From NCBI GenBank assembly GCA_039931675.1, contig JBDTRM010000169.1, forward strand, positions 993 through 64,992: DNA of 64,000 nucleotides, in the 5' to 3' direction. A program made the translations under genes and the position numbers. Of this stretch, positions 7,323 through 52,397 are shown in pieces (the first letter of the stretch is position 1; each line of letters starts with the position of its first letter). The notes under the pieces were generated by a model. The model saw only the letters and a program-made list of their open reading frames with translations, had not been told where the DNA came from and did no database searches. This DNA is from Bacteroidia bacterium (GTDB taxonomy: Bacteria > Bacteroidota > Bacteroidia > AKYH767-A > OLB10).

Positions 7323-7339
7323 AATAATGAAAGAATTAA

Positions 7340-7969: not shown

Positions 7970-7987
7970 AATTTGAAGTTTTAAAAT

Positions 7988-8611
7988 TTACGACTGCTTT
8001 TTATTTAAATTAAAATACCATGCTAAATTAATTCCAAACACCCGATTATAAGTATTAGTGGTGGCAGTAGGAATAATGTTTGATAATCCCCAATCAACAA
8101 AAAAGAGGCCTTCAAAATTTTCGCGGAAGTCGGCACCTACCTGAAACACTATACCAAAATCTGATGATTTTAAATTATCGGAACTACTGTTACCAAAGTC
8201 AATTTTTTTTGATTCTTTATATCCGCTTTCATAATAGTAATACTTGCCTGCAATGCCAAATGCGTAATAACCTCCCAAACCAACGATAACTTTTGATTGT
8301 TCACTTGTTTCAAACTTGAAACGCCCCACAACCGGTAACTCAAGATAAACTGGTTTCATTGTGTATTTATAGCCATAGATATCTTTGAATGAATATCCTT
8401 TGCTACTTGCCAATACCTGGAAATGGATATCAACATCGTGAGTAACAGGCACCAATGCCACAGCGCCAAAGTTAAATGCAAATCGCGAATCAGTATTATA
8501 AGAGCTTCCTTTAACGTTGGTTAATTGTGCACCAACAGTAGGCCCAATCTTTACTTGTGCAAAGCCCCTAAAGCTTAATATTAGCAGAACTATGATGATG
8601 GCGTTTTTCAT
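7988..8611 (-). CDS. Outer-membrane beta-barrel protein (porin/OmpW-like family)
   Basis: Signal peptide from the internal Met (MKNAIIIVLLILSFRGFAQ), alternating beta-strand pattern, aromatic-rich C-terminal strand. Start moved from 8638 to 8611. Confidence 0.75.
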   Translation of the reverse strand: MKNAIIIVLLILSFRGFAQVKIGPTVGAQLTNVKGSSYNTDSRFAFNFGAVALVPVTHDVDIHFQVLASSKGYSFKDIYGYKYTMKPVYLELPVVGRFKFETSEQSKVIVGLGGYYAFGIAGKYYYYESGYKESKKIDFGNSSSDNLKSSDFGIVFQVGADFRENFEGLFFVDWGLSNIIPTATTNTYNRVFGINLAWYFNLNKKQS

Positions 8612-8668
8612 TTTTATTTTGAGATTAAACAGATGCAATTAAAGAGGAATATTTGAAAAAATAAAACA

Positions 8669-28588: not shown

Positions 28589-29995
28589 ATGTTATTTAAT
28601 TGGATTGATGAAAAATTAGGGCCAAGAAATCTGATTAATAAAGATTCCGAAAAGGTTACTTATGTTCAGATAATGGGATTTATTTTAATAGGATTTGGTG
28701 TCAGTTACATAATGTTCTTTCAATTCCCTAAAAATGAAGCCAGTAGTAATGGGATGGCAGCTTCTTTTTTCCTAATAATGCTAGGAATGTCAATGTCTTT
28801 TCCATCTTTACTTAAAGGGCAGACAAAAGATGTTAGCACAATGCGAATAATTGTATTCATGTTTGCTAATGTGATTTGTATGCTGCTTCTTAAAATCGGT
28901 TGGGACAAACATTCATTAAGCGAGATTGGTTTAGACGGTTACTGGATGGGAGTAATTGCATTTCTCTTTGGAGCAAAAGCAACACAAGCATTTTTTGAAA
29001 ATGCAGACAAATTTTTTTCAAAGAAGCAAATCACTCCCCAAGAGATTTTAAGTGAAACAGTAGAAAAGAAAGACTTGGATATTAGTCAAATTGCAATTGC
29101 ACAGTTGGCAAAGATTCAAAATGAGAGTAAGTTACAAACTAAATTCCCAAATATAGTTTCTGTTAGCGATACCTTATTAGGAGGCAAATGCTGTCTGACT
29201 TTATATCTTGAAGACAATAACGGGAAAAATATTCCTGAATTTGTAACGGCAGAAATAAATGAAAAAACAAAAGTTCAAGTAAGAATCGAAGTAATTACCG
29301 ATTCGCCAGCAGCAATAACTCATATTGGTCAAGCAACTGATGAATTGAGTGATTCTGATAACCCAGAAGGGTTTGCTTCATTTTGCGCTTTACTTTCTAA
29401 TACAGATAATATAGATTTAAAATTTTTAGCAACTGCAGGCCATAATTTTACAAATGGTAACTTCAAGAGTATGGGAGGATTTATTTTTGATGATGAACAA
29501 AGAGCTGTTTTTATTAATGGAAAAACTAGAGGTTCTTTATTCTATCAACGAATGCACTTTACACAAGATTTGGCTATAGTAAAATTAAGCCAAACAGATA
29601 GTTTGCTAGAGAATTATATTTCTTTCAATAGTGGTTACAAAGAACTAAGTACTAACGATGTTAAAACTAAAGTTCCAAATGTCACCATCGCATCAAGGAA
29701 AAATATTAATAGAAATGGTTCAAATATTCATGATGCATTTGTACTGGATATTAATATTCCTTTTGATGTCATGTATAATGGTGAAAAGAGGCGACTTCAA
29801 AATGTGATTTTATTAGGAGACACTAATGAACCCGACAAATCTAAAGAAGTTTCAATGCGGGGTGATTCTGGAAGTCCTGTTTATTGCAACCAAACTAAAA
29901 AACTTATTGGTATTTTGATTGGAGGGAATGGAAAATTCTCCTTTGTATTACCACTAAAAGATGTACTAGAAACAAACAACTTTAAATTAATATAA
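28589..29995 (+). CDS. Membrane-anchored trypsin-like (S1/chymotrypsin-fold) serine protease
   Basis: 468 aa. Four N-terminal TM segments. Catalytic triad context TAGHNF (His), DLAIVKL (Asp), GDSGSPVY (Ser). Confidence 0.85.
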   Translation: MLFNWIDEKLGPRNLINKDSEKVTYVQIMGFILIGFGVSYIMFFQFPKNEASSNGMAASFFLIMLGMSMSFPSLLKGQTKDVSTMRIIVFMFANVICMLLLKIGWDKHSLSEIGLDGYWMGVIAFLFGAKATQAFFENADKFFSKKQITPQEILSETVEKKDLDISQIAIAQLAKIQNESKLQTKFPNIVSVSDTLLGGKCCLTLYLEDNNGKNIPEFVTAEINEKTKVQVRIEVITDSPAAITHIGQATDELSDSDNPEGFASFCALLSNTDNIDLKFLATAGHNFTNGNFKSMGGFIFDDEQRAVFINGKTRGSLFYQRMHFTQDLAIVKLSQTDSLLENYISFNSGYKELSTNDVKTKVPNVTIASRKNINRNGSNIHDAFVLDINIPFDVMYNGEKRRLQNVILLGDTNEPDKSKEVSMRGDSGSPVYCNQTKKLIGILIGGNGKFSFVLPLKDVLETNNFKLI

Positions 29996-29997
29996 GA

Positions 29998-32475: not shown

Positions 32476-32699
32476 CGATTACGCTATATTTTATTTGATG
32501 GAGTTTAATTACGATATCATTAAAAATATTGGATAAAAAGTTTTAATACCAGGCAGTATAATAAATTCATTTGTAAAATAAATAAATTGAATACGCTGAA
32601 ATCTTTCAACGGATGTAATGCTATCTTTTAGTAAATTAGTAATTATATTATTTCAAATTGTATTGTTTTAAGAATACAATATCTTAAATTTTCAATATC

Positions 32700-33308
32700 A
32701 TGATTTTACTACAGGATACCTTATCATCTTTTGCCAATCTACCCGACATTCTTAAGTTCGGATTAGTTGGATTAAGTGCAATTGTACTAATCCTCGCATA
32801 CAATTTACTTTCTAAAGAACAGTCGCGAACTGGCGCTGCTCGCGAAAACATTCTGAAAACAATTAAAACATACATGTGGATTGCCTTGGCTTTTTTAATT
32901 GTTTCTGGAATTTGGTCAGTTATTGATAAGTTAATTTCAAAACCGCCTGCAACTGATCTTGCTAAGCAGGAGAGCCCCGTCATTAAAAACTGCAATAAAA
33001 ACTTTGTATTGAACTTTTCTCTCGATCCTGATTTGACTGAATTAATCACAGATAGCGACTCCCTCGAATTGCAATACAGGGTTAGACGTACTGAAACTAA
33101 ATTGAAAACAGTTCCTGTTGAAAGAGCCAAAGGACAGGGGTTCACAGCCTTTATTGATAGTCTTGACAATGATGATATTTACGAGGTTAAACTTATTAAT
33201 AGAACAAAAAAGATATTTTGGGAAAATACTGATGCGGTTTCGGTCAACTATACCTTTACTAAACTCATTCATTCTCCGGAGGATAAGTTAAAAAATTCAA
33301 TTCAATGA
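32700..33308 (+). CDS. Two-TM membrane protein with beta-rich C-terminal domain
   Basis: 202 aa. TMs FGLVGLSAIVLILAYNLL and YMWIALAFLIVSGIWSVI. Its stop overlaps the next start (ATGA at 33305-33308). Confidence 0.7.
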   Translation: MILLQDTLSSFANLPDILKFGLVGLSAIVLILAYNLLSKEQSRTGAARENILKTIKTYMWIALAFLIVSGIWSVIDKLISKPPATDLAKQESPVIKNCNKNFVLNFSLDPDLTELITDSDSLELQYRVRRTETKLKTVPVERAKGQGFTAFIDSLDNDDIYEVKLINRTKKIFWENTDAVSVNYTFTKLIHSPEDKLKNSIQ

Positions 33309-34261
33309 AAAAAAATATTTTACTATTAATATTCTTCACTTTCATAGTCTTTGCAGCAAATTCTCAAATGCGTTTTGCTGAAAAATCTCAGGATGTTTTA
33401 TTTAATGTTCAAACTACCAGCTATTCCAATGGCGTGACTAGATGGGATGTCACTGTTGATAGCAATGACAATCAGTATGATAGCATAGTAGCTATAGAGT
33501 ATAATCTCGATGGACTATTATTTAAAAATCCTGTAAGGAAAAGCGTTAACCCTAAGAATAATTTTCTGCTTACAACTTTTCACACAGTCGAAAGTAATAT
33601 TGAAGCCGTTGTCCATTTTAAAAATGGCGATGTCAGTAAAACAAAAGTACTTCTGAGCATTAACTCACAATCAACATTGCAGATTAATAATACGGCTAAA
33701 CAAATCAAATCTGGTCTTTGGGAATGGGAAGCATTTCTAACAGGCAATGCCCAAGAAATTAATAATGTGGATTACATCATTTATCAGCTACATCCTACAT
33801 TTAAAGAGCCTTATCAGAAGATTGATAAACGTGGCGATTTAAATAAAGCTTTTGCGCTAAGTGCAAAGGGCTGGGGTATTTTTATACTCAAGGCAACTGT
33901 TTACTTTAAGGATGGAAAAACAATATCACTTCGGCACGTTCTTAAATTTAATACCATAAAAGTTGATGTTTTTTACCTTGAAAGTACTCAATCCACATCA
34001 CATACATCAGCGGAAAAAATTGCACAGATTATTAGTAACAATAGCGATTTTAAAGCCTCCCCTAGGTTACTTACCGATATTATTAACGCTGGTGAAGGTT
34101 ATCGCCTTTCTGAAAATCAGATAAGGTATAACATTCTCGAAAATGATTATGTTACAACCATAATCAAAATGCTAAGTAAGGAAGGAGTAAATTCCACTTT
34201 TAAAAAGAATTTAATTTCTTACGATACACCTGAGTATATTTCAATATTTATTGTCAGGTAG
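33305..34261 (+). CDS. Exported protein with two tandem prokaryotic-YEATS-like domains plus an unknown C-terminal domain
   Basis: 318 aa. Signal peptide MKKNILLLIFFTFIVFAANSQ. The second repeat, WEWEAFLTG...VDYIIYQLHPTFKEPYQ...SAKGWGIFILKATVYFKDGKTISLRHVLKF, follows the YEATS pattern (W.W..., V.F.LH.SF..P, G(W/Y).GF, v.F...). The first repeat is weaker (RWDVTVDS...VAIEYNLDGLLFKNP...). Confidence 0.7.
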   Translation: MKKNILLLIFFTFIVFAANSQMRFAEKSQDVLFNVQTTSYSNGVTRWDVTVDSNDNQYDSIVAIEYNLDGLLFKNPVRKSVNPKNNFLLTTFHTVESNIEAVVHFKNGDVSKTKVLLSINSQSTLQINNTAKQIKSGLWEWEAFLTGNAQEINNVDYIIYQLHPTFKEPYQKIDKRGDLNKAFALSAKGWGIFILKATVYFKDGKTISLRHVLKFNTIKVDVFYLESTQSTSHTSAEKIAQIISNNSDFKASPRLLTDIINAGEGYRLSENQIRYNILENDYVTTIIKMLSKEGVNSTFKKNLISYDTPEYISIFIVR

Positions 34262-37895: not shown

Positions 37896-38139
37896 TTTAT
37901 ACTCAATCCAACTAAAAAACTCAATTGATGTTCATTTTGTTTTTTTCAGATTTAAAAACTAGGTATTAGTACTGTTTACTTTAAATATCATTTCAAATTC
38001 CTTACTTGCATTTTCTTAAATACAAAATGAGTTCATTGTATTTTCTTAAAGAGATAAGTTCTCAATGAATCTTTTGTAACATTAAAAATTCTCGAATCAA
38101 AATGAAAAAGGAAACTAATTTTAAATTTCTTTGCATTAT

Positions 38140-38517
38140 ATGTTCCAAAGCAACCTCCCTTTAAATTGTCCACCAACGGATGCTCATGAAGATGAAAAAT
38201 GGCTTTATCGTATTTTGAAATCCACCTCTGTTTGTGAGGAAGAATTTGAAAATTATGTAACCATATATTCACATAAAGTTGAGTATAAAAAAATGTGCGG
38301 TGCCTACGCCATTTCACTTTATGAATTGAAAGAAAAGGCAATTGAAAATGCAAAAAAGAATCCTGTCATAGGTACGTATATCACAAAGATTTTAATAAAG
38401 CCTCAATACGGAAAACTTCACTGTGGCAATACTAAAACGGGTCATTATAACCTTTGGCTTTACACTACCTTTGACGCTTCTAAAGTTGAACACGAATTAA
38501 TTGAACCAATAGTATGA
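38140..38517 (+). CDS. Small hypothetical protein, first gene of the SNF2/methyltransferase operon
   Basis: 125 aa from ATG 38140 (the ORF track starts at TTG 38131). Its stop overlaps the SNF2 start (ATGA at 38514-38517). No family recognised. Confidence 0.6.
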   Translation: MFQSNLPLNCPPTDAHEDEKWLYRILKSTSVCEEEFENYVTIYSHKVEYKKMCGAYAISLYELKEKAIENAKKNPVIGTYITKILIKPQYGKLHCGNTKTGHYNLWLYTTFDASKVEHELIEPIV

Positions 38518-41500
38518 ATTTACTTGACGATAAATATGCAACATCTTCGCATCATCTCGATTTATTGAGATTGTATGACCTGCTGGATTTTGCAGATTTT
38601 CCTTTCTTGAAAGTAGATTTTGCCTCGAATGGAAAAAAGTTCTTGAATTATTTTGTGGCCCAGTTGGATTCTTATGAGCATCGTTTATTATCGGAGATAC
38701 ACCCTGCCAACCTTTTTCTTGTTGAAGCGGGAATTTTATCTGTGAGAGAAGCATTTAATAAAACAGAAAGTAGTATAGTTTATTCGTGCCTATACGATAA
38801 CGCAGAAAAAATTATAAAGTGTTTTGCTATTCCCATAAATGAATTCATTGCAGCAAATCCAATACCTGATGATTATATTGTTGAACTACCGAAGGAAAAT
38901 AACCATACACACCTTACTCCATATCATGCAAAGTATTATTCGTATGAGTTAACTAAACAAAGTTCTTCTGACAGTGTGGACAAACTTGCATCAGCAATTG
39001 TTGATGCACAGGTTCAATTAAATCCTCACCAGGTTGATGCTGCACTCTTTGCTTTTCAATCACCATTAAGCAAAGGTGTACTCTTAGCCGATGAGGTGGG
39101 TTTAGGTAAAACCATTGAAGCGGGATTGGTTATTTTGCAAAAATGGGCTGAGAGAAAGAGAAAAATATTAATCATTGTTCCTTCTAATTTAAGAAAGCAA
39201 TGGTACCAGGAATTACAGGAAAAATTTTTCCTTGAATCTGTAATTCTTGAAACAAAATCATTCAATTACCAGATTAAAAAACTATCGAACCTTAATCCAT
39301 TTGAACAAAAAGATAAAATAATTATTTGCTCGTATCATTTTGCCAAGTCAAGGGACACTTACATTAAATTAGTTAATTGGGATTTAGTTGTAATGGATGA
39401 AGCGCACCGCTTACGCAACGTATATCGTCCTGATAATAAAATTGGCAATGCAATTAAAAATGCGTTAAGTCATGTGGACAAGAAACTATTGCTTACTGCT
39501 ACTCCGTTGCAAAACACCCTCCTTGAATTATTTGGTTTAGTGAGCTTGATTGATGAAAATATTTTCGGGGATTTGAATAGCTTTAAGAACCAGTATAGCC
39601 ATGTTGTTGAGGGGGAGGAGAATTTTGATGATTTAAAAAACCGCTTATCTACAATCTCCAAGCGAACATTGCGTAGAGATGTACTCCAGTATATACCTTA
39701 TACCGAAAGGCACTCCATAACTGAAGACTTTTATCCTACTGAGCCAGAAGCAGATTTGTATGAAATGGTGAGCGACTATCTAAGTTCTCCTAAATTATAT
39801 GCGCTTCCTGCAAGCCAGCGTCAATTGATGACTTTGATTTTACGCAAACTTCTTGCCTCATCTACTTTTGCTATTTCAGGCACATTAAAAGCATTTGCCG
39901 ATAGGTTAGATGGATTAATCAGCCTGAATGCAAAGGCTAATGAAAATTTAGAAAAGGAAATTATAGAGAATTACGAAGGTTATGATGAAGCAAAAGAAGA
40001 GTGGGAAGAAGAGGAAGAAGAATCTAATGAAATAACAAATATAAAACCCAAACCCAAAAACAGTTTCACTCCTGAAGAATTAATTGACGTAAAAAAAGAA
40101 CTTGCTGATTTAAGAAAATTTCAGGCATTGGCTGAAGAGATACGTGAAAATTCAAAAGGCAATAAATTAATGATTGCTCTCAAAAAAGGATTTGAAAAAT
40201 TACAGGAAAAAGCAAATAAAAAAGCTATCATTTTTACAGAGTCAACCCGCACCCAACAATATCTTTTTGAAATTTTAAGCCAAACAGAATATGCGGGTAA
40301 AATTGTTTTATTTAACGGAACAAATAATGATGAGCAATCAAAAAAAATCTATCGGGACTGGTTGGATAAAAATAAAGGAACTGATAAAGTTACAGGAAGC
40401 GCAACGGCAGATAAGCGTTCTGCATTGGTAGAATACTTTAGGGATGAAGCAGAATTAATGATTGCTACCGAAGCTGCTGCCGAAGGTATCAACTTACAGT
40501 TTTGTTCTTTAGTAGTTAATTATGATTTACCTTGGAACCCGCAACGCATTGAACAACGGATAGGGCGATGTCATCGTTATGGTCAAAAATATGATGTAGT
40601 GGTGGTGAACTTTTTAAACAAAGGTAATGAAGCCGACCAGCGGGTATATGACATTTTAAAATTCAAGTTTCAATTATTTGATGGTGTTTTCGGAGCAAGC
40701 GATGAAGTGCTCGGAGCCATTGGTTCAGGGGTTGATTTTGAAAAGCGTATTGCAGAAATTTATAAGAACTACCGAAGCCCCGAAACCATTCAATTAGAAT
40801 TTGATTTTCTACAGGAACAGTACAAAACAGAAATTGATACAGAGGTTGGCAGAGCACGACAGAGCCTGTTGGAAAATTTTGATGCGGAAGTAAACGAAAA
40901 ACTAAAAATTCAAAGTGAGAACACGTTGAATAAATACGAAGAATGGTTGTGGTCGTTGAGCGCTTTCTTTTTAAAACCTTATGCTGAAATTGATAATGCC
41001 AATAAATGGTTCCTGTTAAAAGAAAATCCGTTTAAAGATTTAGACATTAATGAAGGACCTTATCGCCTTGCGAAAAATGTAGAGGATGCAAACACGTATC
41101 GCTTACAGCATCCGTTAGCGGAAAACATTATTGCAGTTTGCAAGCAAATGGAAATGGAAGAAAAAGAATTAACTTTCCATTACCAGGGCATTCCGAAAAT
41201 GACAGTGATTGAAAATCTTCGCGGACAAACAGGTTGGCTTACGGGCATCAATTACAATATAAAAACAGCCGAAGAGCAGGATTATGTTTTGCTTACTGCC
41301 CAGTGTGATGATGGCACTTTGTTAGACATTGACATTTGCCGTAAACTTTTTACACTTCCCGCTACGGAGAGTGCCGTTAACTATCCTTTTGAAGAATCTA
41401 AAAAAGAAACACTTTCGAAATTGAAAATGCAGTTAGATAGCTTGAAGGCTGAAATTACAAGTGAGATTGAATTGAAAAACGTTGGCTTCTATAAAATTGA

Positions 41501-41810
41501 ATTGGATAAATTAGAAAGATGGAGTGCAGATAAAAGGATTTCTGCCAAGCGAAACATTAAAGAAAAAGAACAGGAAAAAAAATTAGCAAAACGGGCATCG
41601 CGTGAAGCCGGAACAATGCAGGAGATTTTGAATTATGAAACAAGACTTAAGCAACTTCAAAAAGATTTGGATAAGGCAGAGGAAGAGTATAAAAGAGAGT
41701 CAGAAGAAATAGAAAATCAGTATGACGAATTATTAAAGGATATACGCAGGAAAATAGGTAAAGAATTTAAAGAAGAACAGTTATTCACCATTCGTTTCAG
41801 AATACAATAA
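38514..41810 (+). CDS. SNF2-family ATPase/helicase with unknown N-terminal domain and long C-terminal coiled coil
   Basis: 1098 aa. LADEVGLGKT (motif I), VVMDEAHRLRN (II), LLLTATPLQN (III), NYDLPWNPQRIEQRIGRCHRYGQ (VI). Confidence 0.92.
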   Translation: MNLLDDKYATSSHHLDLLRLYDLLDFADFPFLKVDFASNGKKFLNYFVAQLDSYEHRLLSEIHPANLFLVEAGILSVREAFNKTESSIVYSCLYDNAEKIIKCFAIPINEFIAANPIPDDYIVELPKENNHTHLTPYHAKYYSYELTKQSSSDSVDKLASAIVDAQVQLNPHQVDAALFAFQSPLSKGVLLADEVGLGKTIEAGLVILQKWAERKRKILIIVPSNLRKQWYQELQEKFFLESVILETKSFNYQIKKLSNLNPFEQKDKIIICSYHFAKSRDTYIKLVNWDLVVMDEAHRLRNVYRPDNKIGNAIKNALSHVDKKLLLTATPLQNTLLELFGLVSLIDENIFGDLNSFKNQYSHVVEGEENFDDLKNRLSTISKRTLRRDVLQYIPYTERHSITEDFYPTEPEADLYEMVSDYLSSPKLYALPASQRQLMTLILRKLLASSTFAISGTLKAFADRLDGLISLNAKANENLEKEIIENYEGYDEAKEEWEEEEEESNEITNIKPKPKNSFTPEELIDVKKELADLRKFQALAEEIRENSKGNKLMIALKKGFEKLQEKANKKAIIFTESTRTQQYLFEILSQTEYAGKIVLFNGTNNDEQSKKIYRDWLDKNKGTDKVTGSATADKRSALVEYFRDEAELMIATEAAAEGINLQFCSLVVNYDLPWNPQRIEQRIGRCHRYGQKYDVVVVNFLNKGNEADQRVYDILKFKFQLFDGVFGASDEVLGAIGSGVDFEKRIAEIYKNYRSPETIQLEFDFLQEQYKTEIDTEVGRARQSLLENFDAEVNEKLKIQSENTLNKYEEWLWSLSAFFLKPYAEIDNANKWFLLKENPFKDLDINEGPYRLAKNVEDANTYRLQHPLAENIIAVCKQMEMEEKELTFHYQGIPKMTVIENLRGQTGWLTGINYNIKTAEEQDYVLLTAQCDDGTLLDIDICRKLFTLPATESAVNYPFEESKKETLSKLKMQLDSLKAEITSEIELKNVGFYKIELDKLERWSADKRISAKRNIKEKEQEKKLAKRASREAGTMQEILNYETRLKQLQKDLDKAEEEYKRESEEIENQYDELLKDIRRKIGKEFKEEQLFTIRFRIQ

Positions 41811-43873
41811 TGGAAATAGGAAAAGTAGATTTAAAGAGTTTGGATTTGAAGCAGCACCAATTGGAAAAGCTGAAAGAAATTTTTCCTGAAGCCTTTATAG
41901 AAGGTAATAAGGTAGATTGGGATAAGTTGCGTCTTACTTTAGGAGAAAACATTGATACAGGTAAAGAACGTTTTGGAATGAACTGGCCCGGCAAAGCAGA
42001 TTGTTTCAAAACTATACAGCAGCCAAGTATAGGCACGCTGATACCCGACCGCGATGAAAGCATAAACTTTGATACCACGCAAAATACTTTTATTGAAGGC
42101 GACAACCTTGAAGCGCTAAAGCTTTTGCAAAAAGCTTATCTCGGAAAAATAAAAATGATTTATATAGACCCTCCGTATAATACAGGGGAAGACTTTATTT
42201 ATCCTGATAATTATAATGAGACCCTCGATACCTATTTAAAATATACAGGACAGATTGATAATGAAGGTAGAAAATATGCTACTAATCCTGAAACAGACGG
42301 ACGCTTTCATAGTAAATGGATGAATATGATATATTCACGATTATACATTGCAAAAAATTTATTGAAGGATGAAGGGGTTGTAGTAATACACATGGATGAA
42401 CATGAAATAGTCAATTTGACTATTATATTAAACGAACTTTTTGGTCCAGAAAATAATTTAGGTACTATCATTTGGGATAAAGGAAATCCAAAGGGTGATG
42501 CAAAAGGAGTTGCTATACAACATGAATATTTAACTGTATTTGCGAAAAACAAAGAGGCATTTGTAAAAGATAATTCATTAGAAAAAGAAAAAGAAAATGC
42601 TGACAGAATTTTAAGGAAAGCGAAGAAAATATTTTCAAGATTAGGGAAGGATGATTATCCTGATGCTATAAACGAAATTATTGAAGAGTTTGATATCAAG
42701 GAAGAAATATTTAGTGTTCACAAAAGAAAGATTGTTCTTGAAGACATTAATTCAGAGTTTAATGCCTGGATGAAAAAACAAGGAAATCTTTCAGGGGGAG
42801 AAAAAGCTTACATATTAATAGATAAGAACGGAGACGTATTTCAATCTGTTTCGATGGCTTGGCCCAACAAAAAGGAAGCTCCAGAAGATTATTTTACTCC
42901 TTTGATTCATCCTTTGACTAAAAAAGAATGCCCAGTTCCAGAGAGAGGTTGGCGTTATCCATCAGAGTCAATGAAAAAATACCTTGAAAAAAATGAAATT
43001 ATTTTTGGGCAAGACGAATCAACACAACCAAGAAGAAAATACCTTCTCAAGGATAATAAGTTTGAAAACCTTCCTTCAATCATTTTCTATGGAGGAAGTG
43101 ATGATAAGCTTTTTAAAGAATTGAAATTATCATTTGACAATCCAAAACCTTTAGAATTTGCTAAACTCTTATTGAAGATTTTTTTGAATAAAAAGGATGA
43201 TATCGTTATAGATTTTTTCGCTGGTTCAGGAACAACAGCCCATGCAGTATTAGAACTAAATTCAACTAATAATTTAAGCAGAAAATTTATTTGCGCACAA
43301 CTTCCTCAACCTACTGAAAAAAAATCTGCTGCAAGAAAACAAGGTTTTGAAACAATCTCACAACTTTGTGTCGAGCGAATAAAAAGGTCCATTTTAAGAA
43401 CAAAATTGAAATTTGCCGATAAGAATAACTTGTTTACTCCTGTTCAAGCAGAAGCTGATTTAGGTTTCAAAGTTTTCAAATTATCGCCCTCCAATTTTAA
43501 TGTATGGGATACCAATGTTAAACACGAGGATGAGGAGATAACGAAGCAATTGCAGTTGAATATACATAATCTTTCAGAACAAGCACTGGAAGAAGCTATT
43601 CTATTTGAACTACTTTTAAAATCAGGTTTTGAGTTAACTATACCTGTTCAGCAACTTGTGCTTGCCGATAAAAAGGTGTACAGCATAGCTAATGATGCAA
43701 TGCTTATTTGCCTTGATAAAAAATTAAATAAGGAAGTTTTAAAAGCCATTGCTGATAGACAACCCAGCCGCGTTATTTGTCTTGATGCAGGCTTTAATGG
43801 CAGCGATGAATTAAAAACAAATGCCGTGAAGCAGATGGAAAGCAAGGGAGTTGTAAAATTTATGACGGTATAA
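41810..43873 (+). CDS. Beta-class N6-adenine/N4-cytosine DNA methyltransferase (Type III Mod-like)
   Basis: 687 aa. IYIDPPYNTGEDF (motif IV) precedes IDFFAGSGTTAHAV (motif I), the permuted order of Type III Mod / N6_N4 MTases. Its start overlaps the SNF2 stop (TAATG). Confidence 0.92.
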   Translation: MEIGKVDLKSLDLKQHQLEKLKEIFPEAFIEGNKVDWDKLRLTLGENIDTGKERFGMNWPGKADCFKTIQQPSIGTLIPDRDESINFDTTQNTFIEGDNLEALKLLQKAYLGKIKMIYIDPPYNTGEDFIYPDNYNETLDTYLKYTGQIDNEGRKYATNPETDGRFHSKWMNMIYSRLYIAKNLLKDEGVVVIHMDEHEIVNLTIILNELFGPENNLGTIIWDKGNPKGDAKGVAIQHEYLTVFAKNKEAFVKDNSLEKEKENADRILRKAKKIFSRLGKDDYPDAINEIIEEFDIKEEIFSVHKRKIVLEDINSEFNAWMKKQGNLSGGEKAYILIDKNGDVFQSVSMAWPNKKEAPEDYFTPLIHPLTKKECPVPERGWRYPSESMKKYLEKNEIIFGQDESTQPRRKYLLKDNKFENLPSIIFYGGSDDKLFKELKLSFDNPKPLEFAKLLLKIFLNKKDDIVIDFFAGSGTTAHAVLELNSTNNLSRKFICAQLPQPTEKKSAARKQGFETISQLCVERIKRSILRTKLKFADKNNLFTPVQAEADLGFKVFKLSPSNFNVWDTNVKHEDEEITKQLQLNIHNLSEQALEEAILFELLLKSGFELTIPVQQLVLADKKVYSIANDAMLICLDKKLNKEVLKAIADRQPSRVICLDAGFNGSDELKTNAVKQMESKGVVKFMTV

Positions 43874-43874: not shown

Positions 43875-46796
43875 ATGAAGCTTAAATTCGAGAGCAACCA
43901 AACTTTTCAGCGTGAAGCTATTGATGCAATCACTGATTTATTTGAAGGGCAACCTTTGCAAAAGGGAGACTTTTCAGTAAGCATTGAAGCAGCAGGTTCA
44001 GGGATTTTCAGTGGCCAGGTGCAAACAGAATTTGGTATTGGCAACAACATTTTATTAAACGAAGAAGCCCTGTTTAAAAACCTGCACATTGTACAGGATA
44101 AAAATGATTTAGACCGCACATCAGCAGGTGAATTTAACAGCAACGGTTTAAACTTTTCAGTTGAAATGGAAACAGGTACAGGTAAAACTTACGTTTACCT
44201 GCGCACCATTTTTGAACTAAGCCGCAAATACGGATTTAAAAAATATATCATTGTTGTACCCGGTGTTGCAATAAGAGAAGGCACATTAAAAACAATTGAA
44301 ATCACGAAAGAGCATTTTCGCTCGCTCTATAATAATATCGAATTAGAATCATTCGTGTATGATTCTAAAAAGCCTGTCCGCCTCAAGCAGTTTGCAACAA
44401 GCAACCATGTGCAGATTATGGTTATCAATATTGATGCATTCAATAAAGAAACCAATGTGTTCAACCAAGAGCGTAACCAGATGAATGGTTACAGCCCTAA
44501 AGATTTTATAAATTCAGTAAATCCCATTGTAATTATTGATGAGCCGCAAAGTGTTGATAAAACCGAAAAGGCAAAAGAAGCCATCAAGTCACTAAACCCG
44601 CTTTGCATTTTCCGCTATTCTGCAACTCATGCCAATCCTTATAACCTTGTTTACCGTTTAGACCCTGTGCGAGCTTATCAGATGCGATTGGTAAAACAAA
44701 TTGTAGTTGCCGAAGCAAAAGGCAGCGAGGCAGCCAATGATGCGTATATAAAACTTTTGAAAACCGATAATAAAAAAGGAATTGTTGCCGAATTACTGAT
44801 TCATAAAAATACCAATGATGGACCAAAAGAGAAAAAGGTTAAAGTTAAGCAGGGCGACAGCCTGTTCAGAAAAAGTGATGAAAGACATTTATATAAAGAC
44901 GGGTATGAAGTAGTTGACATTAACAGTGAGCCAGGAAATGAATTTATAGACTTCAGCAACGGAAAGCGATTGATGCTTGGGCAGGAATCAGGTGGTATAG
45001 GTGAAGAGTTAATCGAATTGCAAATAAGGCAAACTATTCAAAGACATCTCGACAAGGAACTTTTAATGAAAGATAAAGGCATTAAAGTGCTTTCTTTATT
45101 TTTTATTGATACAGTTCCCAACTATCGTATATATGGAAGTGATGGAGTAGTTGAAAAAGGAAAATATGCAATTTGGTTTGAGAAACACTACAATGAATTA
45201 ATTGTATTAGAAAAATATAAACCGTTAAATAAATTTACGGCAGAGCAAATTCATAACGGTTATTTTTCGCAGGATAAAAGAACTATAACACCTTTTGAAG
45301 TTGTAACCAATAAAACAAATACACAAGCAGAAGATTCAACTTTCAATCTTATTATGCGTGATAAGGAACGTTTGTTGGATATGAATGAGCCATTGCGCTT
45401 TATTTTTTCACACTCTGCACTTAAAGAAGGATGGGATAATCCGAATGTGTTCCAGATATGTTCGCTCCGCGAAATGGGAAGCAGCCGTGAAAGAAGACAA
45501 ACTTTGGGAAGGGGTTTAAGATTACCTGTTAACCAGGATGGAGACCGGATTTTTGACGAGAATATAAATAAGCTCACCGTAATTTCTTCTGAGGGGTATG
45601 CTGATTTTGCCGTGGGTTTGCAAAAAGAATATGAAGATGACTGCGGTGTTACGTTTGGCAAGGTAAATAAAAATGCCTTTGCAAAGCTGTCCATGCTTAT
45701 TGACGATGAAGAAAAACACGTAGGCAGAGAAACCTCAGAAAAAATATGGGATGCGTTAAAGCAAAACGGATTTATTGATGATAAAGGAAAAATCACTTCA
45801 ACTTTTGACCCGAAAAAAGAAGTTTTCACACTGAATCTTCCTCCTGAATTCAGCAACATAGAAAATGAAATAATTGAAACGTTAGAAAGCTACCGCTTAG
45901 AAAGACATATTAAGCAAGCCGAAGAGCCACGCAAATTACGTTTGAAAAGTAATAAAGAATTACGTGAGCAGGACTTAGATAAAGAATTTGAAGAATTATG
46001 GAACCGCATAAAACATAAAACCACTTACGAGGTTGTTTATTCAAGCGATGAGCTGATTGCAAATTGCATAAAATCCATTGGCAAAATGGAAAAGATTGAG
46101 CCGGTAAGTATAAGTTACCGCGAAGCATTGCTTGATGTTGAGATGAAAGGTGTAACAGCGCAGGAAACAAGAGCCAACTATTACACCTTAAAATACAAAG
46201 GTGCATTGCCTGATATTATTACCTATTTGCAAAACGAAACTGAATTAACCCGCGCAACCCTTGTTAAAATATTGACTGAAAGTAATAGCATAAATTATTT
46301 TCTAATCAATCCTCAACGCTACATGGATGCTATCGCAGCAATAATCAGGAAAGAATTATACCGCCTGATGGTTGACGGAATCAAGTATGAAAAAATCGGG
46401 GGTGATGAATGGCACATGCGTTTATTTGAAGATAAGGAAGTGATGAGTTATTTATCAAACCGCTGCGAAGTAAAAAAGTCGGTGTATGATGCCATTGTTT
46501 ATGAAAGTGAGATAGAGCGAAGATTTGCCGAAGACCTTGATAAACGAGACGACATAAAACTATTTGTAAAACTTCCCTCATGGTTTGAGGTGGATACCCC
46601 TATTGGCAAATACAATCCAGATTGGGCAATTGTAAAAGAAAATGATTCTGCCATTTATCTTGTTTGCGAAACAAAGGGAACAAGGGACTTTTTGAAATTA
46701 AGGACGAGTGAAGCTGATAAGATAAAATGTGGGAAGAAGCATTTTGAGATACTCAATACAACCTTTAAAGTAGCTGTTAGTGCAAAAGAAATTTGA
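43875..46796 (+). CDS. Type III restriction Res-like DEAD/DEAH helicase with C-terminal PD-(D/E)xK nuclease
   Basis: 973 aa. FSVEMETGTGKTY (Walker A), VIIDEPQS (motif II), ALKEGWDNPNVF. C-terminal E...YNPDWAIV...LVCETKG nuclease motif. 1-nt gap from the MTase gene. Confidence 0.92.
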   Translation: MKLKFESNQTFQREAIDAITDLFEGQPLQKGDFSVSIEAAGSGIFSGQVQTEFGIGNNILLNEEALFKNLHIVQDKNDLDRTSAGEFNSNGLNFSVEMETGTGKTYVYLRTIFELSRKYGFKKYIIVVPGVAIREGTLKTIEITKEHFRSLYNNIELESFVYDSKKPVRLKQFATSNHVQIMVINIDAFNKETNVFNQERNQMNGYSPKDFINSVNPIVIIDEPQSVDKTEKAKEAIKSLNPLCIFRYSATHANPYNLVYRLDPVRAYQMRLVKQIVVAEAKGSEAANDAYIKLLKTDNKKGIVAELLIHKNTNDGPKEKKVKVKQGDSLFRKSDERHLYKDGYEVVDINSEPGNEFIDFSNGKRLMLGQESGGIGEELIELQIRQTIQRHLDKELLMKDKGIKVLSLFFIDTVPNYRIYGSDGVVEKGKYAIWFEKHYNELIVLEKYKPLNKFTAEQIHNGYFSQDKRTITPFEVVTNKTNTQAEDSTFNLIMRDKERLLDMNEPLRFIFSHSALKEGWDNPNVFQICSLREMGSSRERRQTLGRGLRLPVNQDGDRIFDENINKLTVISSEGYADFAVGLQKEYEDDCGVTFGKVNKNAFAKLSMLIDDEEKHVGRETSEKIWDALKQNGFIDDKGKITSTFDPKKEVFTLNLPPEFSNIENEIIETLESYRLERHIKQAEEPRKLRLKSNKELREQDLDKEFEELWNRIKHKTTYEVVYSSDELIANCIKSIGKMEKIEPVSISYREALLDVEMKGVTAQETRANYYTLKYKGALPDIITYLQNETELTRATLVKILTESNSINYFLINPQRYMDAIAAIIRKELYRLMVDGIKYEKIGGDEWHMRLFEDKEVMSYLSNRCEVKKSVYDAIVYESEIERRFAEDLDKRDDIKLFVKLPSWFEVDTPIGKYNPDWAIVKENDSAIYLVCETKGTRDFLKLRTSEADKIKCGKKHFEILNTTFKVAVSAKEI

Positions 46797-46802: not shown

Positions 46803-47624
46803 ATGCTTTTAGTAAATAGTATATCACCCATCAGCAAAATCATTCCGACTAACGGAAGCAATCCGGCTTTGGTGCTATGCGAAGACCTCACAGAATATTA
46901 TTGCAAATACAGCCGCTACACACCTGCAAATAAGTTACTCATTGAATTCATTTCATCATCCTTTTTAAAAGTATGGAATGTCCCGACACCTGATTTTGCT
47001 TTTGTTGAAATAGCAGCAGAACATGTTCCTGCCGAAATATTGTCAAACAGAATTTCGCGCAATGATTTTCTGATACCCACATTTGGTTCACAGCACTTAG
47101 AACATTCGCATGAAATTGATGAATCAGTTATTCTATCATGGAATAATAAACGAGGACAGGTAAATAAAATAATAAATAAAGAAGATTTCTTACGTATAGG
47201 ATTGTTTGATTTGTGGATGGCAAACGAAGACCGGAATCACAATAATTATAATTTAATGATAAGTGCGAAAGAAGAAGGAAGCGTTATTTATGCAATTGAC
47301 CATGAAAAATGTTTCAATTCAGGTATCCTTGACAACGTACATCCCATTCAGATTTTAACTGAAGACGAATCAATTTTAAAAACGGACTTGGTTCCCATAT
47401 TATTTAACAATGAATTTCACTTAGAAGATGCCATTCGTGGGATTTTAGAAGGATATAGTAATTCTGTTAATGAATGTAAGCATCAATTACCCGGAATATT
47501 GCAGCAAATACCCGAAAGGTGGAACATAAATACAGATGAAATTGCTACCTTGCTTGAGAAAAATATCTTTGCGCCAGAATGGATGGAACTGACAGTGCAG
47601 ACATTTAAAGAATATTTGAATTAA
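46803..47624 (+). CDS. HipA-like serine/threonine kinase-fold protein
   Basis: 273 aa. LWMANEDRNHNNYN (catalytic-loop D.H..N pattern) and YAIDHEKCF (metal-binding Asp). 6-nt gap from the Res gene. Confidence 0.75.
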   Translation: MLLVNSISPISKIIPTNGSNPALVLCEDLTEYYCKYSRYTPANKLLIEFISSSFLKVWNVPTPDFAFVEIAAEHVPAEILSNRISRNDFLIPTFGSQHLEHSHEIDESVILSWNNKRGQVNKIINKEDFLRIGLFDLWMANEDRNHNNYNLMISAKEEGSVIYAIDHEKCFNSGILDNVHPIQILTEDESILKTDLVPILFNNEFHLEDAIRGILEGYSNSVNECKHQLPGILQQIPERWNINTDEIATLLEKNIFAPEWMELTVQTFKEYLN

Positions 47625-47646
47625 ACTTGCGTTATAAAAGGAAAAA

Positions 47647-48450
47647 ATGAAAAGCACTTATTCTATAGTCTATTTATCTCTTAAGCCAACGGTTCAGGAG
47701 CAGATAGCCATTGGCTTGCTTCTGACCAATGGAGAGAAAGCGCATTTTGAATATTCCCCGCTCAAGCTTAAGTACATTTCAAAACTGATGAATAACGAAA
47801 CGTATGGTTTTGTAAACAATTATTTATCAGGCTTGAAATCTGACTTTAAAGGAACAAAATTATCTTCAGTTGATTATTTAAGCTATCTGACTAAGTACAG
47901 GAATAACCTGGTTATATTTTCGCAAGCTGTTGACATAAATATGGAAACTAATGAAGCTAATTTCAAAAAGCTTTTTGTAAAGTTCATTTTTGAAGATGCT
48001 CCGTTGAAATCAGTTTTACCTTCAGAAAAAGTGAACATTAATACTAAGGTTAAAAATATTTTATATCCTAAAATAAAGGATAATGTTAATATAGATAAGA
48101 CGTTTACTCCTAAGGAAATTCCATCATTGCTTATTCCAACCGTGAAGGTTAATTTTATCGGGCGTAATGATAACCCTGTTGCCGGTGAGGTAATAGATTT
48201 TGAAGGAAGTATAAATTCCTTATCCAATAAGATTTCCCACTTTATCAGCCTTATAAAAGCTTTTGAAATTGAAAAAGAAGAAGGCAAATTTTTCGTTATT
48301 GGCGATGAACCCAGAAGAGAAAACCCATCGCATGAAACATGGCAGCATCTTAAAGAATGGCAATCAGTAGAAATAGTTTCAACAAACGAAATTGAAAAGG
48401 TTTCTGATTATATTCATACGCATCATGTTAGGCCTTTTCAGCAAAATTAA
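47647..48450 (+). CDS. DUF3037-like protein
   Basis: 267 aa. N-terminal YSIVYLSLKPTVQEQIAIGLLLTNG fits the DUF3037 N-terminal pattern as I recall it. 22-nt gap from the kinase gene. Confidence 0.65.
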   Translation: MKSTYSIVYLSLKPTVQEQIAIGLLLTNGEKAHFEYSPLKLKYISKLMNNETYGFVNNYLSGLKSDFKGTKLSSVDYLSYLTKYRNNLVIFSQAVDINMETNEANFKKLFVKFIFEDAPLKSVLPSEKVNINTKVKNILYPKIKDNVNIDKTFTPKEIPSLLIPTVKVNFIGRNDNPVAGEVIDFEGSINSLSNKISHFISLIKAFEIEKEEGKFFVIGDEPRRENPSHETWQHLKEWQSVEIVSTNEIEKVSDYIHTHHVRPFQQN

Positions 48451-49264: not shown

Positions 49265-49957
49265 CTATGGAAGGGTACGCTCAAGAATTATTTTGTTCTC
49301 CCAGGCTATATTAAAGTCAGAATTAATCTGAAATAAAATAATTCTATAGGGGTTTTTCAGCTCTGTGTCATCATACCCTATTGTACAAAAAATGCCTACA
49401 CCATTTCCTAATTCATTGTACATTTTTGACAAATCGTGATCATAGAAATAATCGCTGACGACAAGGTTGGGATTTTGAACAAATTCTTTAAAACGATTAA
49501 CATCCGGGGCGATTTGATCCCATGTAGTTTGCTGGGCCTCCACATCATCAAAATAAAATGATTTAAGATTTTCTTTTACAACTTCAGGATCATCGGAACC
49601 CGTATAAAGCCATGTATCAGTATAATAAACGATATCATCTGGGTTTAACATAACATCTGAAGCATTCGTAGGCTCATTCTCATCATAATCAAGTTTTGCA
49701 GCAGCCAAATAAAAAGACTCTCTGCCTCCTTCATTACTATAACAAAGGAAAAAAGTTGCTCCATTTCCATCGGATAGATCAAGTAATTGCTCTTTGGTGA
49801 TAATTCCTCCAAAACCCAACCTTCGCGAATAAGCATCCGAATCATCCCCAAGTTTAAAGTAATTAGCAAGCAAATATCCAGCTACGTTAAAAGATATGTC
49901 ATGACGGAATCCTCCTCTGCTTAAAATGAATTGGAATAGTTTATTTTGTTTGTCCAT
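49265..49957 (-). CDS. Hypothetical protein, paralogue A (GFRHDI ... NKIILERTLP family)
   Basis: 230 aa. Shares GFRHDI.(F/P)NVA, FGG, TFFLC, AAAKL.Y, GYD(D/E)TELKNP(Y/F)R and a terminal NKIILERTLP with 50008..50826. Confidence 0.7.
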   Translation of the reverse strand: MDKQNKLFQFILSRGGFRHDISFNVAGYLLANYFKLGDDSDAYSRRLGFGGIITKEQLLDLSDGNGATFFLCYSNEGGRESFYLAAAKLDYDENEPTNASDVMLNPDDIVYYTDTWLYTGSDDPEVVKENLKSFYFDDVEAQQTTWDQIAPDVNRFKEFVQNPNLVVSDYFYDHDLSKMYNELGNGVGIFCTIGYDDTELKNPYRIILFQINSDFNIAWENKIILERTLP

Positions 49958-50007: not shown

Positions 50008-50826
50008 CTACGGCAATGTTCTTTCTAAAATTATTTTATTCCAATAATTCAAAGTATTATCATTATTGACTTCAAACATAATTAATCTGAATGGGTTTTT
50101 TAATTCAGTTTCATCATAACCAACAAAGACATAAATTCCTTTGCATTTATCATTGTACGCTTCGTCATAAAGCTTCGAAAGATCATCTCGATGAAGAAAG
50201 TTACTCACGATATTATTTGAAGGGTAAGCTTTGCTCCCAAAATTATCTACATAGGTTTTTACCTCGCTCCATTTTAATTGCGGCTGCGCAGGTGCTGGTG
50301 GGGGCACACTCGGTGGACTTGAATTAATAAAGCTAATAACAGCACGGTAGTCTAAAGGTTGTGCGTATGTCCACTTTATGCAATTGGAAAAATAAAGTCT
50401 ATCGTTATCTCTAAGATTAACAGATCCGGAATTCTCGCCAACTGAAGGGTTGTATTTTAGCTTTGCAGCAGCAATGTGAAACTCACCATCCTTTAAGCAT
50501 AAAAAAAAAGTTGAACCAAGCCAATTCCCAGCTAAGTCCTTGATAGAGGCCATATCAAAAAAGCCTCCAAATCCATATTTTTCAGCAAAGTTAATTTGTA
50601 CGGTCAAAGGTAAGTCAGCTTGGTAATGAAGGATATTTTGTTGAATTAAAAATGATGCAACATTTGGAGTAATGTCATGCCGAAAACCGGGTCGCGATTT
50701 ATTTTCCTTATCATTATTAATTGTCTCAATAAGGGAATTGACTTTTTCATTTGTGTAATAAAGCCATACAATAAGTCCTGCAAGGCCAAAAATAATAAGA
50801 GTTAAAACAATTCGGGTTTTCATCAT
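50008..50826 (-). CDS. Hypothetical protein, paralogue B with N-terminal TM anchor
   Basis: 272 aa. TM IVLTLIIFGLAGLIVWLYY, then the same conserved blocks as paralogue A. Confidence 0.7.
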   Translation of the reverse strand: MMKTRIVLTLIIFGLAGLIVWLYYTNEKVNSLIETINNDKENKSRPGFRHDITPNVASFLIQQNILHYQADLPLTVQINFAEKYGFGGFFDMASIKDLAGNWLGSTFFLCLKDGEFHIAAAKLKYNPSVGENSGSVNLRDNDRLYFSNCIKWTYAQPLDYRAVISFINSSPPSVPPPAPAQPQLKWSEVKTYVDNFGSKAYPSNNIVSNFLHRDDLSKLYDEAYNDKCKGIYVFVGYDETELKNPFRLIMFEVNNDNTLNYWNKIILERTLP

Positions 50827-50998: not shown

Positions 50999-52397
50999 TC
51001 AAGCAGCTAATTTTTGTCCGTCTATAATTTCTAATTCTGCTGATGCTCTTTGATATGCTTTGATGAATAATGCAAGAGTTTTTTCAATAACATCTTTTGT
51101 ATAATTAGCCATCATTTGAAATCTGAATATTGCTTTCCCTCTTGGCACCGCGGGGTATTCTATAAGGTTTGCTATAACACCTGACTGCGTAATGTTCTTA
51201 GAAATAAGACGTGCCAGCCGTTCATCTCCTATTAATACAGGTATAATCGCTGATGGATTTCCATTGGTTTTAAACCCGGCCTGGTGCATGCACTTCAGTA
51301 TATGTAATATGTTTTCCATAAGCTTAGCACGCAGCAATTCACCTTCATGCGAAAAAACTATTTGCATTGCACTGTTTACTATCGCACATTGCACAGGTGA
51401 GATGGCATTGCTGAAAGTGTAAGTAGGTCCAAAAAAAGTAATGCGTTGTCGTATTACCTGGCTGCCGGCTACAAAGCCGCCATTACTTGCAAAGGTTTTA
51501 CTGAAGGAACCCGTTATAACTAAATTCTCAGCATTTTCTAATTGCATATTTTCCAGGTTGCCCAAACCATGCGTGCCAAGGCACCCAAAATCATGAGCCA
51601 CGTCAATAATTAATATGGCATCGTAAGTAATTGCTAATTGCTGTATTGCTTTAAGATCAGGTCCATCTGAATTCATACTGTATAAACTTTCAACAACAAT
51701 AAAAATTCCGTTCTGTGCATTCTTAGCTCTTAGTGATTTCAATTTGTTTTCAAGGTCCTCAATATTGTTATGCATAAACTTAAACACATTGGTGGTTGCA
51801 TAATGAGCTGCCACATCAAGGCAGTTGTGTGAGAGTGAATCCATCACTATACAATCTTCCTTAGTTACTAACCCGGCAATGGCACTAAAGCAAGCCATCC
51901 ATCCTGAGCTAAAAACCAATGCTTGGTCCTGTTGCAATATTGTTGCAATTCTCTTTTCAAGTTCATCAGTAATGGATGAGCGCCCAGTTAATATTGCTGC
52001 ACCCGCTGAATGTATTCCATATTTATCTCTTTTCAAGTTCATCAGTAATGGATGAGCGCCCAGTTAATATTGCTGCACCCGCTGAATGTATTCCATATTT
52101 ATCAATTGCATGTTTAGCTGCATCAATTATTTCCTTGTGATGAGAAAGGCTTAGATAATCTTGCGAACCAAAATTAATCAGTTCCTTTTGATTTAAATCT
52201 TCAGTAATTATTGTTTTAATTGCTATGTCATTATTAGCGGTATAGGTTCGGGAGAATGGCCACACTTCATTTTGCTGGCGTAACAAGCACCAATCATTAA
52301 ATTTTGCATAACGGTCATTCAAGTTACTTCCTTTTACATTTCTAAAGTCAAAGGAGTTTTGCCTAAGTGATTCCACGTTAAAATTATTAGTGTTCAT
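50999..52397 (-). pseudogene. Alpha-oxoamine synthase family PLP enzyme (serine palmitoyltransferase / 8-amino-7-oxononanoate synthase-like) disrupted by a 76-bp tandem duplication
   Basis: Split into ORFs 52023..52397 and 50999..52042. Both contain DKYGIHSAGAAILTGRSSITDELEKR. PLP-lysine context GSFSKTFASNGGF. 76 is not a multiple of 3, so the duplication shifts the frame. Confidence 0.85.
51951..52102. repeat. Perfect 76-bp tandem duplication (2 copies)
   Basis: 51951-52026 and 52027-52102 read identically (CTCTTTTCAAGTTCATCAGTAATGGATGAGCGCCCAGTTAATATTGCTGCACCCGCTGAATGTATTCCATATTTAT). Confidence 0.9.

Follow-up and report, generated by a model that had tools for sequence, protein, structure and literature searches.

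A 64,000-nucleotide (nt) stretch of a Bacteroidia genome (GenBank assembly GCA_039931675.1, contig JBDTRM010000169.1, positions 993 to 64,992; here called the window) carries two adjacent genes, one for a short HipA-like kinase and one for a two-domain partner protein. The pairing has already been described elsewhere, and the pair in the window is a divergent Bacteroidota copy of the HipA-like kinase/DUF3037 anti-phage pair. An earlier note on this DNA gave the coordinates, lengths, and 22-nt spacing of the two open reading frames (ORFs) correctly and held the pairing to be uncharacterised. The latter statement is outdated: the pair is found in the literature as PDC-M66, as DS-6/HipAD, and as the pair linked to Retron-Sda1. 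We consider it probable (about 0.7) that the two genes form a self-contained anti-phage toxin-antitoxin (TA) module of the HipA-like kinase/DUF3037 type (PDC-M66; DS-6/HipAD).

The kinase

HipA_2 (PF20613) is the sole Pfam family that the 273-amino-acid (aa) kinase matches over the cut-off (62.1 bits, E = 6e-17, residues 19–174; gathering threshold 27 bits), and the same family is present in all 49 kinase homologues. The kinase also matches the PADLOC model PDC-M66A (E = 8.4e-8). Residues K35, E48, N141-E-D143-R144, N148, N150, and D166-H167 are invariant over 43 homologues, and by this alignment they presumably correspond to the ATP-binding Lys, the catalytic loop, and the Mg-binding Asp. The HipA-type catalytic loop that the earlier note had read in the protein is thereby borne out, both by the PF20613 score and by the invariance of the loop residues.

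The AlphaFold2 (AF2) model of the kinase has a predicted local distance difference test score (pLDDT) of 94.5 and a predicted template modelling score (pTM) of 0.92. Foldseek searches of the PDB with this model recovered PI4KII-alpha (E = 4e-6), CtkA of H. pylori (4e-5), Shewanella HipA (4pu5; 5e-5), and Legionella HipT (8ezr; 5e-4), and the confidently modelled fold is of the HipA/CtkA/PI3-4-kinase type. Among PDB sequences, the profile of the kinase family reaches HipT(Lp) and HipA (E = 0.004–0.02); the single kinase sequence gave chance-level matches only. By inspection of its length and domain matches, the kinase appears to be the core catalytic domain alone, without the N-terminal subdomain of HipA. 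HipT and the short HipG, HipI, HipJ, and HipM kinase families lack this subdomain (PMC8262856).

The partner protein

Single-sequence searches do not recognise the partner. With the limit set at E ≤ 10, Pfam DUF3037 (PF11236) still gave no match, and neither NCBIfam nor PADLOC gave any at E ≤ 0.1. The relationship comes into view through its relatives. An exhaustive profile search collected 712 cluster representatives (50% identity), nearly all about 280 aa long and matched end to end, and some partner relatives bear the NCBI name 'DUF3037 domain-containing protein'. Six of the 11 close relatives match DUF3037, all weakly (best E = 0.0058), whereas 20 of 127 partner-family representatives match it at E ≤ 0.01 (best E = 1.4e-9) and 5 of the 127 match PDC-M66B. 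In seven relatives of about 285 aa the DUF3037 match covers residues 5–128, four of them scoring 24.6–31.1 bits and three falling just under the Pfam cut-off of 22.6 bits (19.9–21.3 bits). A profile of the 11 closest relatives of the partner aligns with those seven in hhalign over the full length (268 columns) at 99.9% probability and E = 1e-32. By these comparisons the N-terminal domain of the partner is homologous to DUF3037, a remote homology visible solely by profiles. The proposal of the earlier note that the second protein fits DUF3037 holds, therefore, as profile-profile homology and fails as a direct match to Pfam, NCBIfam, or PADLOC; the search of both families by hidden Markov models that it called for gave PF20613 for the kinase and left the partner unmatched directly.

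The AF2 model of the partner (pLDDT 82) consists of two domains, with a disordered linker (residues 117–128) between them. No convincing Pfam family covers the C-terminal domain, and the lone match, to an AHJR-like family, occurs in 1 of 127 relatives (E = 0.0044). Foldseek searches of the PDB gave weak matches to proteins of the restriction-endonuclease fold (BstEII, BsoBI, and XPF/Mus81; E = 0.03–0.3). Conserved residues of this domain are G172, N174, D184, E221-P222, W232, P263, and K224, the last being R in the window; with N169, R173, and R224 the window partner departs from the wider family, in which D, K, and K prevail at these positions. A canonical PD-(D/E)xK motif was looked for, and a confident assignment as a nuclease was rejected, since D184 and E221-P-x-K224 are split by a long helix and the window has R224. 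The 'nuclease-like fold' of the C-terminal domain is a predicted lead only.

In a viral structure library, the predicted structure of the partner resembles the BFVD entries A0A516KTX2, A0A516KZK0, and A0A6J5NRF1, all of them uncharacterised phage proteins, and its weaker matches are DUF1828, DUF2726, and phage endonuclease proteins. Two of the three entries match over the full length (E = 7e-10 and 2.5e-9); one, 125 aa long, is a single-domain match with a template modelling (TM) score of 0.78 and a root-mean-square deviation of 2.2. From these modelled structures, DUF3037-like proteins may also be phage-encoded. The profile of the partner family gave chance-level matches only against all PDB sequences, and no HipS at E ≤ 10 although HipS entries such as 8ezr were included. 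The top 50 Foldseek matches of the whole-partner model contain neither HipS nor the HipA N-terminal domain.

A second partner gene, 86% identical to that of the window, lies on another contig of the same metagenome-assembled genome (locus-tag prefix ABI723; P0002, at L006 104–904). Ahead of it, the contig edge cuts through an ORF of which only the 3′ end is left. This genome probably contains two paralogous pairs.

Co-occurrence of kinase and partner

With the kinase profile alone, 80 loci were retrieved from one-genome-per-species contigs. Because the loci were retrieved by kinase alignment, the test of co-occurrence is independent of the partner. Bacteroidota or their unclassified relatives account for 79 of the loci and Ignavibacteriae for one. 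Four loci in which a contig ends within 56–267 nt were left out of the count. In all 76 testable loci an ORF of the partner family lies directly downstream of the kinase on the same strand: 74 have a clear match (E = 1e-25 to 1e-102), and in two more the arrangement is the same but the start is over-called. The kinase gene comes first at every one of them; the gaps run from −26 to +53 nt and are mostly −4 to +8 nt. The adjacency of kinase and partner is far above chance, which answers the check on co-occurrence of the two families proposed in the earlier note.

The pair is found in unrelated surroundings, stand-alone loci included, and is for that reason regarded as an autonomous two-gene module. 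At most loci it has an upstream spacer of its own of more than 100 nt. A small convergent HTH_3 gene lies just 3′ of the pair in two loci, L001 (10847–11125, minus strand) and L095 (10160–10474, minus strand); the window has none. This gene may be a regulator of the pair or belong to the island.

Relation to described systems

The label PDC-M66 belongs to a set of candidates that were predicted from their embedding ('guilt-by-embedding') in BREX, DISARM, and type I restriction-modification (R-M) systems (Payne et al., bioRxiv 10.1101/2024.01.29.577857). PADLOC applies it to the pair formed by DUF3037 and HipA-like proteins, whose association is described as strong, and occurrences of this pair in Bacteroidota have been mentioned (PMC12548924). 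In the Retron-Sda1 operon, deletion of the kinase abolishes defence, deletion of the DUF3037 gene is toxic, and the retron is not needed (PMC12548924). DS-6, a system found with DefensePredictor, protects E. coli, and the D139A substitution in DS-6A abolishes the protection; AlphaFold3 predicts an interaction between DS-6A and DS-6B with an interface pTM (ipTM) of 0.76–0.79 (PMC13092281). As cited in that paper, DS-6 has been renamed HipAD after Brenes & Laub 2025. In its Table S8 the kinase gene of DS-6 precedes the DUF3037 gene with a 4-nt overlap, and HHpred places DUF3037 at residues 7–125 of DS-6B and a DUF1829 domain (clan PDDEXK), at 0.78, in the same protein.

DS-6/HipAD of E. coli (DS-6A, WP_000389051.1; DS-6B, WP_000210934.1) is the closest parallel to the pair in the window. 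Both consist of a kinase followed by a partner of about 270 aa with an N-terminal DUF3037 domain, both lack HipB, and in both the genes overlap or nearly touch. The kinases are homologous with the catalytic Asp kept: hhalign aligns the kinase family with DS-6A at 98.4% probability (E = 5e-15), D143 falling on D139. The partner family aligns with DS-6B at 90.7% overall and at 94% with the N-terminal domain alone (E = 1.4e-7), the E-values ranging from 1e-6 to 1e-7; the probability is only 39% when the small profile of the close family is used. A nuclease-like fold may, on a weak signal, be common to the C-terminal domains of the partner and of DS-6B. A DUF1829 domain is not claimed for the partner, as its C-terminal domain matches the DS-6B C-terminus at a probability of 0.2%. 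The pair in the window differs from DS-6/HipAD in its occurrence in Bacteroidota, in being appended to a type III R-M operon, and in being known here from sequence. As regards PDC-M66, the likeness is on the kinase side, where PDC-M66A matches, and the difference on the partner side, where PDC-M66B does not.

The pair of Retron-Sda1 comprises the same two families, and its genetics fit a kinase that is the toxin and a DUF3037 protein that is the neutraliser (PMC12548924). It differs in that the Sda1 pair replaces a retron effector, whereas the window is without a reverse transcriptase or retron context. The Sda1 DUF3037 protein has a C-terminal region that resembles a DNA-binding protein of type III-A1 retrons (PMC12548924), and this agrees with the pattern of a conserved DUF3037 domain joined to dissimilar C-terminal domains. 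The Bas51 methyltransferase trigger described in the same paper was considered and set aside for this pair, since it belongs to other retrons, Asa1 and Squ1.

More distant parallels are found among the Hip systems and in restriction operons. HipBA of E. coli K-12 and HipBST share with the pair the kinase superfamily, the catalytic motifs, and a toxin neutralised by a separately encoded protein. In contrast to both, the pair has no helix-turn-helix (HTH) protein HipB, and the predicted antitoxin is encoded downstream, not upstream. The kinase of 273 aa belongs to HipA_2, not to HipA_C/Couple_hipA, and also differs from canonical HipA, which is about 440 aa long and has an N-terminal coupling domain; HipBST differs further in that no HipS-like similarity of the partner was detected by sequence or fold. 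In hipIN (PMC8262856), a short kinase is likewise followed by a two-domain partner with a putative neutraliser at the N-terminus and a putative nucleic-acid binder at the C-terminus. HipN, however, combines a HipS-like domain with HIRAN, and the window partner combines DUF3037 with an undescribed α/β domain; the likeness is one of design logic. PrrC of the type Ic R-M system EcoprrI is alike in being a suicide-type effector whose gene lies in a restriction operon or at its end. PrrC is an anticodon nuclease of unrelated chemistry, whereas the kinase pair brings along a neutraliser and is mostly found where there is no R-M.

Organization of the locus

The coordinates of the two genes, their parts, and the operon that precedes them are collected in Table 1.

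Table 1. Features of the operon and of the kinase-partner pair; positions are those of the window.
Feature	Position	Strand	Basis or remarks
128-aa ORF, PD-T4-10A-like	38131..38517	+	PADLOC PD-T4-10_A E 2.2e-9; 4-nt overlap with SNF2 start
SNF2 helicase, DrmD-like, under the NCBIfam cut-off	38514..41810	+	NF038318 648.6 bits vs 950; PADLOC DrmD E 3e-194
Type III Mod methyltransferase	41810..43873	+	PF01555; PADLOC MTase_III E 8.5e-195
Type III Res	43875..46796	+	NCBIfam PRK15483 E 1.6e-106; PF19778 and PF04851; PADLOC REase_III E 2.8e-299
Kinase ORF	46803..47624	+	273 aa; HipA-like (Pfam HipA_2) short kinase; predicted toxin/effector
K35 codon, invariant Lys, presumed ATP-binding	46905..46907	+	43-sequence alignment; role by analogy with HipA-type kinases
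Catalytic loop N141-E-D143-R-N-H-N-N148	47223..47246	+	Invariant N141, E142, D143, R144, N148
D166-H167, presumed Mg-binding 'IDH' motif	47298..47303	+	Invariant in 43-sequence alignment; aligns to DS-6A 'IDHN'
Kinase-partner spacer, 22 nt	47625..47646	+	Read from sequence
Partner ORF	47647-48450	+	267 aa
Partner N-terminal domain, residues 1-116, divergent DUF3037	47647..47994	+	Profile-profile comparison
Partner inter-domain linker, residues 117-128	47995..48030	+	AF2 pLDDT <50; columns poorly conserved
Partner C-terminal alpha/beta domain, residues 129-267 and stop	48031..48450	+	Undescribed domain; possible restriction-endonuclease-like fold

The operon is tightly packed in the order PD-T4-10A-like ORF, DrmD-like SNF2 helicase, Mod, Res, kinase, and partner, with 6 nt between the end of Res and the start of the kinase. 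The earlier note had placed the module within a defence operon; the operon is of type III R-M, and embedding of this kind recurs in the clade. The 128-aa ORF at 38131–38517 is probably the first gene, its position suggesting that a PD-T4-10A-like ORF opens an operon made of a type III R-M system and a DrmD-like SNF2 helicase. On the 3′ side of the partner, a 151-nt spacer is followed by a convergent ORF of 220 aa with a hydrophobic, membrane-protein-like sequence and no Pfam match. No HTH ORF adjoins the pair in the window, and there is no space for a small HTH gene because the spacers are only 6, 22, and 151 nt long; the earlier note was right that a HipB-like gene is missing next to the kinase. 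Scans for sigma-70 promoters and terminators were uninformative, the counts being near the shuffled expectation. Bacteroidota promoters deviate from the sigma-70 consensus.

Restriction-modification genes beside the pair

Restriction genes are over-represented beside the pair. The 115 immediate neighbours include 8 type I specificity subunits as well as HsdR, Eco57I/MmeI-type, and Mrr enzymes. With a limited query set, an R-M gene is directly adjacent at 13 of the 80 loci and within 8 kb at 20 of them. In one locus (L064, 6880–13224) the order is hsdS-kinase-partner-hsdR, and this position between hsdS and hsdR is what we take to be the slot of PrrC in EcoprrI. The pair also directly follows hsdS of type I R-M operons in L017, L043, L053, L054, L079, L082, and L084.

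The contexts of the closest relatives were compared in eight cases, with identities of 41–53% for the partner and 47–72% for the kinase. Six of the eight pairs follow immediately on the 3′ side of restriction genes or methylase genes, and these differ in type: type III in the window and in L095, a Mtase/GmrSD/AAA_15/ResIII-SNF2 set in L001, an MmeI-like enzyme in L089, Mrr in L009, and PIN-HerA-NurA-Mtase in L093. The pairs in L003 and L094 stand alone. L095, a metagenomic locus (1–9676), has the order SNF2 (1098 aa), AAA_23 ATPase, Mod, Res, kinase, and partner, and its proteins are 61% (Res), 49% (kinase), and 41% (partner) identical to those of the window. Judged by these identities, the Res-kinase-partner block has been kept although its proteins are deeply diverged, Res less so than the pair.

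None of the 80 genome loci contains homologues of the window Res and Mod, and the type III system of the window was for this reason rejected as an obligate partner. Attachment to the operon is most likely one more case of defence genes embedded in or appended to restriction systems, a known tendency, and not an obligatory functional dependence. It matches the 'guilt-by-embedding' prediction of the PDC candidates (bioRxiv 10.1101/2024.01.29.577857). We read the arrangement as the co-location of layered defences and, probably, their co-expression.

Proposed mechanism and alternative readings

In the mechanism that we favour, the short kinase would be the growth-arresting effector, its activity being predicted. 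The two-domain partner would keep the kinase inactive, presumably by binding it directly via the DUF3037 domain, and its C-terminal α/β domain may serve in nucleic-acid binding or in sensing. On phage infection the kinase would be released or activated, and it would then phosphorylate an essential target of the host (or of the phage), so that the infection is aborted. The scheme builds on the family membership of the kinase, the remote homology of the partner, their co-occurrence and coupling, and the homology to a validated system down to the catalytic Asp, all obtained in this analysis. It borrows defence activity, the requirement for the catalytic Asp, and toxicity on deletion of the DUF3037 gene from papers on homologues; its predicted elements are that the partner binds the kinase directly, what the C-terminal domain does, what sets the system off, and what the kinase phosphorylates. 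The suggestion in the earlier note that the DUF3037 protein is the partner of the kinase gains from co-occurrence and coupling, from the homology to DS-6/HipAD, and from the published genetics, and antitoxin is the most likely of its roles.

Several points weigh against a TA module of the DS-6/HipAD type. The window partner fails the Pfam DUF3037 and the PADLOC PDC-M66B models, and as it fails PDC-M66B the locus is probably not callable as PDC-M66 by PADLOC's own models. In sequence, the C-terminal domain of the partner and the C-terminus of DS-6B are not alike by profile comparison (probability 0.2%). By hhalign, the kinase is only 26% and the N-terminal domain of the partner only 14–17% identical to the validated E. 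coli proteins. The experimental evidence for protection and toxicity comes from E. coli DS-6 and from the pair of Sda1 (PMC13092281, PMC12548924), not from a Bacteroidota member.

The restriction context raises the question of whether the pair is wired to the adjacent R-M system as a PrrC-like fail-safe, in which the kinase stays silent as long as R-M works and is set free once a phage has blocked or escaped restriction, with the partner as the link or sensor. The 6-nt spacing between Res and kinase in a tightly packed operon, the synteny of the Res-kinase-partner block in L095 despite deep divergence, the six of eight closest contexts 3′ of restriction or methylase genes, the R-M gene adjoining 13 of 80 loci, and the hsdS-kinase-partner-hsdR order of L064 would all fit such wiring. 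About three quarters of the loci, however, have no R-M gene within 8 kb (limited query set), most pairs have an upstream spacer of their own, many loci stand alone, and the DS-6 and Sda1 pairs protect E. coli alone (PMC13092281, PMC12548924). The neighbouring R-M types are mutually unrelated, which speaks against a specific protein-protein interface, and autonomous defence genes embedded in R-M, BREX, and DISARM are a general pattern (bioRxiv 10.1101/2024.01.29.577857). We regard such wiring as unlikely. A broader version gets just as little credence from us: the pair might be a portable 'second line' placed at the 3′ end of any type of restriction operon, the C-terminal domain of the partner reading the DNA or the restriction status (e.g. 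phage DNA that is uncut or modified, or an activity directed against restriction) and the kinase firing only when restriction fails.

Two other readings give up either the defence role of the pair or the assignment of roles within it. The two-gene toxin/neutraliser architecture with its tight coupling, the patchy distribution, and the variable contexts would also suit an ordinary addiction module that stabilises a defence island or mobile element by post-segregational killing and takes no direct part in defence against phages; L001 has an integrase near the pair, and in L007 a HigB/HTH pair adjoins it. Yet homologous pairs protect against phages in a manner that requires kinase catalysis (PMC13092281, PMC12548924), and the neighbours are strongly enriched for defence genes, not for plasmid or transposon genes, so addiction pure and simple strikes us as improbable. 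We think it still less probable that the nuclease-like C-terminal domain of the partner is the effector and that the kinase is a sensor or regulator whose substrate is the partner, a nucleic acid, or a small molecule. In favour of this reading are the weak resemblance of the domain to restriction-endonuclease-fold proteins, the assignment of the DS-6B C-terminus to DUF1829 of clan PDDEXK (HHpred 0.78), and the conserved acidic and basic residues D184, E221, and K224, and the kinase fold is common to lipid and small-molecule kinases such as PI4K. On the other hand, every Foldseek PDB E-value for the partner exceeds 0.03, the conserved residues lie off the canonical PD-(D/E)xK positions, with N169, R173, and R224 in the window against D, K, and K in the family, and the Sda1 genetics, in which loss of the DUF3037 gene is toxic and loss of the kinase abolishes defence, fit the kinase as the toxin (PMC12548924).

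Other features of the window

Upstream of the R-M operon, a run of genes on the plus strand (28589–34261) may be a separate conflict system. It comprises a trypsin-like protein (28589–29995), an 825-aa protein (29998–32475), a 202-aa ORF (32700–33308), and, overlapping the latter, a prokaryotic-YEATS protein (33305–34261; PF20305, E = 4.5e-23); none of the proteins of the run is found in PADLOC. Downstream of the pair, two tandem paralogues on the minus strand (49265–49957 and 50008–50826; 36% identity, E = 6e-38) share the C-terminal sequence ...IILERTLP and have no Pfam match. Further on, a perfect 76-nt tandem duplication (51950–52101) splits an aminotransferase-like gene into two overlapping ORFs, 52023–52397 and 50999–52042, both on the minus strand, and a 25-residue peptide is repeated in both. 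Because 76 is not a multiple of 3, the aminotransferase-like gene is read as a frameshifted pseudogene or an assembly artefact.

Significance

What sets this locus apart from the described pairs is a partner beyond recognition by Pfam and PADLOC, its dissimilar C-terminal domain, and the recurrent 3′ attachment to several types of restriction system. The validated HipAD/DS-6/PDC-M66 family is extended to a large and divergent Bacteroidota lineage. Such loci are probably under-counted in defence censuses, because the DUF3037 and PDC-M66B models detect only 20 and 5 of 127 relatives, respectively. The conserved residues of both proteins are now marked for mutagenesis. DUF3037 is the conserved part of the partner and the C-terminal domain is dissimilar to that of DS-6B, in keeping with one domain that neutralises and another that senses. 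The recurrent attachment of the pair to unrelated restriction operons does not make it a new kind of system; it raises a testable question about layered defence.

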